A stretch of 64,000 nucleotides of DNA. Source: a virus. Lineage: Duplodnaviria; Caudoviricetes. Positions 21,666 through 32,726 of this stretch are shown here, in pieces; the stretch's first letter is position 1, and every line of letters starts with the position of its first letter. The stretch spans positions 96,001-160,000 of IMG/VR virus record IMGVR_UViG_3300031853_000001, one strand, 5' to 3'. Position numbers and translations under genes: made by a program. The notes under the pieces were generated by a model that saw nothing but the letters and a program-made list of their open reading frames with translations, had not been told where the DNA came from and made no database searches.

Positions 21666-22636
21666 CAGCGCAAAAGGAGAGCAAGCTGTTACTCCGAGTG
21701 AACTTATCGGCGCTATATAAATAGGAAAAACCAATTAAATACAGTATTTTAAATGAAGTAATAACTGCCATAGAAGTCATGACCTATGATAGAAGACACT
21801 TCATTTAAAGCAACCGGTTGATTTGCGCAATTAAGTCGTTAGAAGCGACTAGAGGGAGAGACCCTGACTAATAAGCAAGTCCATTCTATGAAATGGTAAT
21901 GTCGAAAACCAATTAGTGTAAAGTAGCATACCTTACCAATAATAAGGAGAATCAGCGTAGCGAACTGAATTGGCGTACTGGAATTTGTTGTCCAGAGTAG
22001 GCATAAATCGAGCAGCAATGCGGTAATACCCGTGCACAGGTAGCTAAATTACCCTGGCTCACCAATTATTTTAGAAGATAAGACTTGAGCTTATCTCTGG
22101 CTATGAAGCGAGTGCCGTGCCGCAGATGCGGTGCTTAGTGGAGCCTATGTGGGTTTAGCGTGTCAACCACAATGCGGATAGGTATTAACCGAAAGAAAAC
22201 ACGCTTTAATGGCGCTTTATCCCAAGCCTTTTCGCGGCGGCGCTATAAGTACCAAAAGGTATTATTTAATACTGAGCGTGAAACTAAGAGGGAACTGAAG
22301 GCTGTGCCAAGGTGAAAGGCTAACAGTCCGAGTGATGACCGTTGAAGCCATTCGGTGCATAGTGGTGCCGTTAAAGCGATGGATGCATACATCGTCCACT
22401 TCATTTAATGACTTGATGCTTATCAAGCTAGAACTATCGAGGACGTGTGCGGTGGGAATGTTTGAGATTAGATGTAGATAGTTTAAGTATAGACTTGCGG
22501 TGCAAGCCTAATCAACTGGCGTTCCGCGGCCAGAATACTTTGCGGGCTTTATTGATTCGGGAGGAAGTGTCCGTAGATGAACTTCTCGGAGTAATCGCCA
22601 TAATCGAATCAGCCGTGCGGCTGGCATAATGCCGCA
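21666..22636 (+). ncRNA. Large structured ncRNA region (GOLLD-like size and context; identity unverified)
   Basis: ~970 nt with raised GC, many hairpins and no credible ORF, flanked by tRNAs. Confidence 0.45.
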
Positions 22637-26725: not shown

Positions 26726-27120
26726 AAAATATTAAAGCGTGCTTTTCCTTGCTGTACACTTGTTGAAAAGCCAAATGTTCCCGTATGAGAATACGCAGGT
26801 TATACCTGTATATTGAAATCCCATAAGACGTCACAAAGGAATGGATAGAAATTACAATGGGCCATTCAGAAAGTAGAACACTTTAATATTTGACTTTTTC
26901 TGAAAATTCTGGTATAATAATTACAGAAACAAGGAAAGGACAAAATAATGAAGATACTTGTTGTAAATAAAGATGAGAAAATACAATTAATTCATCTCCT
27001 AAAACAAGAAATACGCAAACCTGGTTGTCCTTATGAATTACTTACTATTTTAGAAAAACTTAGTCCTGGAGACTATGAATATCTTTTTACAACTATGAAA
27101 TAAAAGAAAGGAAGTAGATA

Positions 27121-27690
27121 CTCCATTTAATAAAATGGTTGAACCAAGTGAAGAAGAGTTAACCACTCTGCTTGGGCTATCTAAATAACAGCCATACGAT
27201 TTAGCGGGATACTACTAAATCGCGGCCACGAAATCAGTAATGATTAGTGATAAGGAGAAACTCTTAATGTTAAGGATAGGCGCTTGGTTATTCGCTAACA
27301 AAAACTTGGCTCCTTGCGGCGTCGTAATAGAAAGCAGATTGAGCAGATTTGCCGAACCCAGAAAAGACTTTAAGGTGGCAGTTAAAGGGACTCTGGGAAA
27401 GCCATAAGACGTTTGGTGTCGTTGAAACCTAGAAATAGGATATAAGCAAGGTTCACAGATAAAGTAGCCTAAAACGACAATGATTCTAATAAGTAATTTA
27501 ATTAGAATAATGTGCTGAATGGTTTAGGTGAAATTTGGGAGTAATCAGTCTCCCCGTTGCTAGCCAAAAGGCAGGATGAAGAAGTTAAAGGGTCGCTACC
27601 TTTGGCTCAGCCTTCATCTTCAACGTGGTTGAATATGTTAGAAGGATAATACAAGTACGGCGAAGGTCGCAACGGTTTTATTAAATGGGG
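27121..27690 (+). ncRNA. ~570-nt large ornate ncRNA (ROOL-like)
   Basis: 21-nt terminal helix CTCCATTTAATAAAATGGTTG / CAACGGTTTTATTAAATGGGG, many internal stems, no ORF. Size and tRNA context fit ROOL. Confidence 0.6.
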
Positions 27691-32264: not shown

Positions 32265-32360
32265 GGCGGGTTAAGCCTAATTTGGTAAGGCAGGAGATTG
32301 CTAATCTCTGAGTAATCGGTGTATACCGGTGTTTCGGTTCAAGTCCGAAACCCGTCGCCA
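32265..32360 (+). tRNA. tRNA-Ser(GCT)
   Basis: GGAGA-TT GCT AA-TCTCT; long variable arm; GCCA. Confidence 0.9.
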
Positions 32361-32362
32361 AT

Positions 32363-32520
32363 TGTGGACTGTTGGCTTAGAAGCAGCCATTCAGCTAAGG
32401 AGTTCTTAATTTCTCTATTAGTGCGAAATGTATTGTGGGCTACATTTGTTATAATGCCCCACGAGTATGATGTGCAAATAGGTAATAGGAATATAAGATT
32501 TGGCGTAATAGCACACCACA
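32363..32520 (+). ncRNA. 23S rRNA H43/H44 (L11-binding GTPase centre) mimic with an internal insertion
   Basis: TGTTGGCTTAGAAGCAGCCAT..TAAGGA ... GCGTAATAGCACAC, closed by TGTGG/CCACA. Confidence 0.8.
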
Positions 32521-32651
32521 AATATTGAGCTGGCCAGAGTAGCGTGCAGAAAGCTCATTAAACACGGGGTTACTACATAGACTTGCCCACGCCTCTTAAC
32601 AATGCGTACCTTGGAGAGCGCGTGTTCCGCGACGTTTAACTGCGGATTTAT

Positions 32652-32726
32652 GCGGGTGTAGTTCAACGGCTCGAATACTTGGCTTCCACCCAGGAGATGA
32701 GGTTTCGACTACCTCTACTCGCACCA
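32652..32726 (+). tRNA. tRNA-Gly(TCC)
   Basis: CTTGG-CT TCC AC-CCAGG; ACCA. Confidence 0.9.

Follow-up and report, generated by a model that had tools for sequence, protein, structure and literature searches.

The window that we analysed is a stretch of 64,000 nucleotides (record positions 96001-160000) from the genome of an uncultured phage, whose 180,932-bp record was classified as complete by CheckV, and it constitutes the tRNA island of this phage. Its plus strand carries at least 20 tRNA genes, together with a full-length ROOL RNA (27120-27688, 315 bits) and a drum RNA (22098-22209, 70.8 bits). On the same strand, between the genes for tRNA-Ser(GCT) (32265-32360, with an encoded CCA, found by ARAGORN and by the Rfam tRNA model) and tRNA-Gly (32652-32726, found by ARAGORN), lies an rRNA-like element of 160 bases (32362-32521). 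It is a self-closed copy of the GTPase-associated centre of 23S rRNA (the top of helix H42, H43 and H44; positions 1051-1108 in the E. coli numbering, which is used below), interrupted between positions 1090 and 1091 by a 95-nt hairpin. Only one spacer base separates the 3' end of tRNA-Ser from the 5' end of the element, so the latter is likely generated by 3' processing of the tRNA. The same tRNA-Ser is found 2-3 nt upstream of the element in three related contigs (L092, L110 and L045). In part of the subgroup to which the window belongs (L015, L042, L075 and L272), the 100 nt upstream of the element, i.e. the position occupied by tRNA-Ser in the window, hold a conserved non-coding stretch that includes, in this order, GCUACGG, AAAAUGAUGGUA and GGCAC.

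The interval between the rRNA-like element and tRNA-Gly is also occupied. Directly abutting the 3' end of the mimic is a 58-nt element (32522-32580) composed of a hairpin, GAGCU...AGCUC, and a conserved tail, which is near-identical in nine related contigs, has no match in Rfam and may either extend the mimic at its 3' end or be a small RNA in its own right. Next comes a match to the Rfam abiF RNA (32582-32619) that, with 30.5 bits (E 0.002), falls short of the gathering score of 37.

The rRNA-like element can be divided into parts that correspond, nearly base by base, to the ribosomal domain. It is closed by helix P1, in which UUGUGG (32362-32367) pairs with CCACAA (32516-32521) and stands in for the top of H42; its 5' strand includes the equivalent of G1055 and its 3' strand begins with the equivalent of C1104. 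The new closing helix proposed in the initial annotation is thus borne out, as six base pairs that covary among relatives. The copy of H43 (32369-32394, positions 1057-1081), assigned from identity to E. coli and from the match to the Rfam model of the bacterial large subunit (LSU) rRNA, exhibits the loop UUAGAAGCA, with the equivalent of A1067 at 32379, and a stem with the internal bulge at 1060/1061 and 1077/1078. A single additional U follows U1078 (at 32391), as it does in some real rRNAs, and the 1057:1081 pair is C-G, where most members of the family described below have A-U. The junction CUAAG (32395-32399, positions 1082-1086) retains the 1082-1086 pair, here C-G (32395/32399) and covarying in the family, as well as the stack of A1084 and A1085. 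It leads into GAGU (32400-32403, positions 1087-1090), the 5' strand of the base of H44, which includes A1088 and is assigned from pairing and conservation in the family. The insert, an irregular hairpin closed by UCUUA/UAAGA (32404-32498), is specific to the family and delimited by folding and by covariation among kin; it is joined to the tip of H44 by the linker UUUG (32499-32502), which is absent from rRNA and conserved in 59-61 of 62 members at each position. The tip and 3' strand of H44 (32503-32515), recognized by reading of the sequence and by conservation in the family, comprise GC, the loop GUAAUA, GC and ACA (1101-1103), with A1095 at 32507. The loop GUAAUA is closed by the same two G-C pairs as in the real domain (32503-32512), where these pairs dock on G1071/C1072. 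A feature of the real domain that is missing is a contiguous 5' strand of H44 (1087-1092), as the insert and UUUG sit between 1090 and 1091. The hallmarks of the family, namely GAGU, A1101, the insert at 1090/1091, UUUG, the variable closing helix and the location on the strand of the tRNAs, are all present in the window.

With the E. coli rrn locus as the reference, a run of 21 nt (32370-32390) is identical to H43 of 23S rRNA and another of 10 nt is identical to H44. The Rfam LSU model (RF02541) aligns 32365-32417 to its positions 1094-1147 with a score of 19.5 bits (E 2e-4), against a gathering threshold of 50. The alignment to 23S positions ~1051-1108 suggested in the initial annotation is therefore confirmed, and all the sequence strings quoted there are present where they were placed, with ends that are right to within one base each. 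No rRNA is detected at the Rfam gathering thresholds in the 64-kb window, and a single H43-like motif, that of the element itself, is found in the whole 180,932-bp genome, in agreement with the earlier remark that no other rRNA sequence is present. A search of the whole genome for a copy of the sarcin-ricin loop found none.

The inserted stem, estimated earlier at about 100 nt, is an element of 95 nt that is predicted to fold with a free energy of -24.6 kcal/mol (z -2.8), which is matched by none of 200 shuffled sequences. Among 11 close kin, 13 of its base pairs have been altered on both sides, while the apical helix alone is not conserved. The possible pseudoknot that had been noted in this region found no support, since both the folding and the compensatory changes in the 11 kin agree with one long irregular hairpin. 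The middle of the insert contains a conserved module, in which two wobble-rich helices surround a 2x2 purine loop (GUGCGAAAUG with AUGAUGUGC), and which recurs in distant members (e.g. L004, L007, L061 and L275). Many other members, including those of Pseudomonas phage pf16 and Aeromonas phage 4_4572, contain a second module, a hairpin of the form CACCCC-tetraloop-GGUAAGG, which is absent from the window. Overall, the inserts share no common sequence and span lengths from ~44 nt to over 300 nt around an unchanging core; those of two other members had no match in Rfam. Two further identities of the window insert were considered and rejected. A comparison with the whole of E. coli 23S rRNA gave no indication that it copies further ribosomal regions such as the H41/H42 junction or the H46 loop (score 20 against 18.7 +/- 1.9 for shuffled sequences), and its module is neither a K-turn nor a box C/D element, as it has no 3-nt bulge and its match to snoRNA is at the level of chance (E 7.5). 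The apical GCUAC of the insert has a possible complementarity of 5 nt to the downstream element, in which neither side varies.

Relatives of the element were collected by two scans. An exact 17-nt pattern from H43 matched more than 119 viral contigs, and among the matches listed, most are not rRNA; they exhibit a common layout, in which H43, the junction and GAGU follow one strand of a variable helix, a variable insert separates GAGU from a conserved 3' half, and the complementary strand of that helix comes last. A degenerate 18-mer from the family-specific 3' half was the anchor of a second scan, which returned at least 120 viral loci and 69 loci in bacterial assemblies; because about 69 matches would be expected by chance in the bacterial scan, only the 29 loci with a full element were counted. 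At least 141 distinct full elements of 105-416 nt were parsed among the matches listed from viral and bacterial contigs. The conservation in other phages on which the initial annotation had staked its reading is thus found, and the claim of a stand-alone, conserved and structured copy of the uL11-binding domain, as opposed to an rRNA gene, is supported by the family and by its covariation.

In an alignment of 60 members, which are not phylogenetically independent, the core positions are paired in 94.8% of cells, compared to 72.0% in column shuffles, and double changes number 340, compared to 104 in the shuffles; controls with the partner slid along the sequence are paired in 34-50%. Compensatory changes affect all six pairs of P1 (96.7% of cells paired), all four Watson-Crick types are found at 1058:1080, and the 1057:1081 pair and the helix that closes the insert covary as well. 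The 1082:1086 pair is U-A in 33, C-G in 21 and A-U in 5 of the 60 members. G1087-C1102 and U1090-A1101 are paired in 60/60, which is partly imposed by the parsing pattern, and likewise the apparent invariance at 1084, 1087, 1088, 1090, 1091-1094 and 1098-1101 is imposed by the search patterns. A predicted fold like that of the real 23S domain is supported by this covariation, together with the retention of the bases that make tertiary contacts.

Thirty members, chosen so as to exclude the window and its subgroup, served to build a covariance model (R1). The model matched 32362-32521 of the window over its full length (model positions 1-137) with 90.7 bits (E 6e-27), and had no second match in the 64 kb. 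Copies in cultured phages scored 70-90 bits and true 23S sequences 46-60 bits, exactly at H42-H44. The lower scores of true 23S and their placement indicate that the family is a recognizable relative of the real domain and yet separable from it.

The scans also revealed other rRNA-like sequences. Three viral contigs (L100:1759-1819, L044 and L117) contain insert-free, self-closed copies of H42-H44 with a long, rRNA-like H42, which lie in AT-rich, non-rRNA flanks and are followed by a hairpin, a ribosome-binding site and a small ORF. R1 scores the insert-free copies like true rRNA (52.5 bits), and their arrangement suggests that the domain is put to another, leader-like use here. Two others (L103 and L114) contain longer 23S-like stretches (~990-1140) beyond which they diverge from rRNA, and which may be mimics of larger rRNA fragments or chimeric assemblies. 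Finally, Paenibacillus phage Pd_22F (L125; MZ092003.1, ~83,600-84,040) carries an unannotated, genuine 23S segment of the Firmicute type, several hundred bases long, which may stem from packaged host DNA or from an error of assembly.

To avoid circularity, base frequencies in the 5' half of the element were read from the set anchored on the 3' half (n=79) and those in the 3' half from the set anchored on the 5' half (n=62), and the comparison was made with 118 real bacterial 23S sequences, for which the 3' strand of their own H44 served as the anchor; for a conservative count, 35 canonical sequences that had been dropped by sampling were put back into the real sample. G1059, U1060, G1063, G1071, C1072, A1073, C1075, A1077, C1079, A1085 and G1089 are kept as in rRNA in 96-100% of elements (e.g. 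G1071 and G1089 in 78/79, C1072 and A1085 in 79/79). Other positions are relaxed in comparison with real rRNA. Position 1061, which is U in 117 of the 118 real sequences, is U in 43, A in 24, G in 9 and C in 3 of the elements (p 7e-12 by the conservative count); the invariant G1068 (118/118) is replaced by A in 22/79 (p 5e-8, conservative count), and A1070 (115/118) by G in 18/79 (p 4e-4, conservative count). The difference at 1067 is not significant (A 107 and G 11 in real 23S; A 61, G 15, C 2 and U 1 in the family; p 0.17). In the loop of H44, A1095 is present in 62/62 elements, 1096 is A in 50, G in 11 and U in 1, and 1097 can be any base. Position 1061 is not conserved in the real GTPase-associated centre across the domains of life, and an A at this position stabilizes the tertiary fold (PMC6239185, PMC2719339). 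In the real domain U1061 is flipped out and stacked on A1070, and it is the substitution U1061A that confers the stabilization (PMC2719339). The frequent A1061 would therefore suit an RNA that has to fold without the rest of the ribosome. The loop that contacts factors and drugs thus drifts within purines, while the fold and the surface for the C-terminal domain (CTD) of uL11 are kept. As regards A1067G, there is no sign that the elements match the 23S rRNA of their hosts: elements with G1067 occur in Firmicute and Neisseriaceae assemblies, and at least four of the 11 real 23S sequences with G1067 among the 118 (L282, L304, L313 and L353) are from Bacteroidota.

The family-specific bases are also informative about its origin. 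Among the matches listed, positions 1087-1090 read GAGU in all parsed members with the exception of Xanthomonas phage XacN1 (GAAU), and A1101 opposite U1090, the UUUG linker and the site of the insert are common to the members, including those of Pseudomonas, Serratia and Aeromonas phages. Many Proteobacterial 23S rRNAs, including that of E. coli, have GAAA at 1087-1090 and U1101. The sharing of GAGU, A1101 and the insert site even where the host 23S reads GAAA suggests one old origin followed by spread among phages. These comparisons point to an element that is not a recent copy of host rRNA, and they argue against repeated capture from hosts.

The association with tRNAs seen in the window is a recurrent one. 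A tRNA gene is located at most 500 nt away in 35 of the 63 distinct elements that the first scan yielded, invariably on their own strand, and for 21 of the 63 the distance is no more than 20 nt. No protein family is common to the neighbourhoods beyond close kin: an all-against-all comparison of 1,458 ORFs located up to 4 kb from the 141 elements yielded a largest cluster of 11 loci. In cultured phages, copies are found in stretches that are annotated as empty, between tRNA-Asn and tRNA-Pro in Pseudomonas phage pf16, after a 2'-5' RNA ligase gene in Xanthomonas phage XacN1, before tRNA-Met in Aeromonas phage 4_4572, and in Serratia phage BF and the related jumbo phages of Erwinia, Cronobacter and Pectobacterium. 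Full elements are also present in bacterial assemblies of many phyla, including isolates of Flintibacter muris and of a Clostridiaceae strain, where they presumably represent prophages or co-assembled phages. The bacterial-assembly copy nearest to the subtype of the window comes from an Acutalibacteraceae MAG, a weak hint of a Firmicute host from the gut or rumen.

The element is best explained as a member of a large family of phage genes for a free-standing non-coding RNA, and its boundaries coincide with those of the 58-nt domain bound by the CTD of uL11 (PMC1802607, PMC2719339), in which binding requires the tertiary fold (PMC6239185, PMC1802607). In the crystal structure, the interface with the CTD involves bases 1058-1060, 1062-1065, 1075-1083 and 1088, while the N-terminal domain of uL11 and thiostrepton are located at 1059-1064, 1068-1070 and 1095-1098. 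In the family, the bases of the CTD interface are kept or covary, and the universal insert site at 1090/1091 lies outside it. We consider that there is about an even chance that the RNA acts as a replica of the domain, folded like the original and binding uL11 off the ribosome. It would be transcribed together with the tRNA array and released by the enzymes that process the ends of the neighbouring tRNAs, as suggested by a 5' end located one base from a CCA. Its two ends would then fold into the three-helix domain equivalent to 23S 1051-1108, the minimal domain for the binding of uL11, with the insert leaving H44 at 1090/1091, and this domain would probably bind the CTD of host uL11. A partner from the host is favoured over one from the phage, given that no protein family is shared by the neighbourhoods and that no uL11 gene was found in this phage genome. 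As a consequence, the RNA could conceivably withdraw uL11 from the ribosomal pool and weaken uL11-dependent events such as the activation of RelA; alternatively, it might present a uL11-RNA surface to whatever reads the site of the GTPase centre. We regard as possible, but with a probability well short of even, that such a free-standing replica serves the phage as a weapon, in which the uL11-loaded RNA, as a copy of the base for factor docking off the ribosome, would shield ribosomes by absorbing effectors directed to this site, or disarm the uL11-dependent alarm signalling by RelA. Several points argue against the uL11-binding replica. There is little time for titration in the course of a short lytic infection, and uL11 is mostly bound to ribosomes already. 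A pure sponge for uL11 would leave the ever-present and highly variable insert without an account, and rRNA has no equivalent of the conserved UUUG linker or of A1101, both of which are peculiar to the family. Within the family itself, universal binding of uL11 is challenged most by a rarer second insert site, 1077/1078, which lies within the range of the CTD interface and where a minority of members carry a hairpin of 21-24 nt that could hinder the binding of uL11 in those members.

Other explanations have to be weighed against an off-ribosome uL11-binding replica. A spare copy of the GTPase centre could soak up the ADP-ribosyltransferases, nucleases or methyltransferases that attack this site on ribosomes, leaving the ribosomes of the host to translate the mRNAs of the phage, and it would need no partner gene; this we consider unlikely, albeit less so than the remaining possibilities. 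An enzyme with the appropriate specificity exists, as Tre23 ADP-ribosylates H44 of 23S within 1095-1098 and blocks EF-G (PMC8661411), and A1095 is invariant in the family. The tRNA island of this genome contains other RNA mimics and genes for RNA repair, and the copy in XacN1 follows a 2'-5' RNA ligase gene. However, Tre23 is an interbacterial weapon and not a phage defence, and we know of no anti-phage system that targets the GTPase-centre site, nor did our search of the literature find one. Besides, 1096 and 1097 vary freely and A1067 is replaced by G in 15/79 elements, so that effectors that read those bases would escape many of the members. It is less probable still that the free domain captures translational GTPases (EF-G or others), the complex of RelA with tRNA, or thiopeptide antibiotics. 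Oligoribonucleotides comprising the isolated domain are reported to bind EF-G (Munishkin and Wool 1997, as cited in PMC5829649), A1067 stacks on the elbow of the RelA-bound tRNA, and thiostrepton binds the 58-nt domain. Nevertheless, the bases that make these contacts (1067-1070 and 1096-1097) show less conservation than any other part of the core, and more variability than in real rRNA, and the genome has no sarcin-ricin loop, the other half of the factor-binding site; for these two reasons we rank such a trap low. The relaxation of the bases that contact GTPases, the tRNA elbow and thiostrepton favours instead a role based on the fold or on uL11.

The variable insert might in turn be the working part of the RNA, with the rRNA-like domain, perhaps chaperoned by uL11, providing stability, processing or geometry. 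This would agree with the location of the insert at one common site in nearly all members, with the conserved modules that inserts possess (the purine loop and CACCCC-tetraloop-GGUAAGG), and with the structural selection on the insert of the window. On the other hand, insert sequences are wholly different and of widely different length around a constant core, other viral contigs contain self-closed copies with no insert at all, and it is simpler to attribute an unchanging function to the part that does not change. We judge a mere handle improbable, with a likelihood between those of effector absorption and factor capture. Least credible of all, and very improbable in our estimation, is that the element regulates a neighbouring gene in cis as its leader, or that it is a remnant of captured host rRNA that has no function. 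The high identity to rRNA over short stretches speaks in favour of a relic, but every helix exhibits compensatory changes among more than 100 variants, which contradicts this reading, the closing helix is not ribosomal, and GAGU, A1101, UUUG and the insert site are common to phages of unrelated hosts. As for a leader, the flanking genes are those for tRNA-Ser and tRNA-Gly, with no ribosomal-protein gene there, and autoregulation by uL11 is not known, the rplK-rplA operon being controlled by uL1 (PMC10931766).

Copies of tRNAs and genes for ribosomal proteins are known from viruses. For a conserved and widespread copy of an rRNA domain that exists as a separate small RNA, however, we could not find a description in the databases and literature that were covered: Rfam 15 contains no family that matches the element at gathering thresholds, with only the local match to LSU rRNA below them, and a similarity search with a 700-nt region against 50,697 phage records returned matches to tRNAs only. 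In the full-text literature, of which our coverage was partial, rRNA mimicry was found only in the leaders of ribosomal-protein mRNAs (PMC7247131), with no leader that binds uL11 among them. The copied domain, which binds uL11 and thiostrepton and is tied to EF-G and RelA, is among the best-studied RNA-protein modules, which makes tests of binding and structure simple, and carriers with tractable hosts are available (Pseudomonas putida phage pf16, Serratia phage BF, Xanthomonas phage XacN1 and Aeromonas phage 4_4572). If binding of uL11 or absorption of toxins by the RNA is borne out, our picture of how phages handle the ribosome of the host would be extended in a new direction, and RNA catalogues would also gain a family of several hundred members; should the RNA serve as a weapon of the phage, no earlier rRNA-domain decoy would be known from any virus.

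The element shares with the GTPase-associated centre of 23S rRNA the three-helix layout, the 1082-1086 pair, the known tertiary-contact bases and the GUAAUA loop of H44. It differs in that it lies outside any rRNA, among the tRNA genes of a phage, and is closed by an unrelated, covarying helix, in that the family carries at 1090/1091 an insert of 44 to more than 300 nt followed by UUUG, and in that U1090-A1101 is always a Watson-Crick pair. With ROOL, drum and the Y-RNA-like tRNA mimics it shares the genomic niche and strand, and presumably the processing from tRNA transcripts; they are unrelated to it in sequence and structure, and none of them copies an rRNA domain. The general idea of rRNA mimicry is already known from the ribosomal-protein leaders (e.g. 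uL1, bL20, uS15 and L10(L12)4), which, like the element, are non-ribosomal RNAs that mimic the site at which a ribosomal protein binds rRNA (PMC7247131, PMC10931766). Those leaders, however, are cis-regulatory 5' UTRs of their own operons, found in cellular genomes and only loosely similar to rRNA, whereas the element is a stand-alone phage gene with no ribosomal-protein gene nearby, and is near-identical to the rRNA site that it copies.
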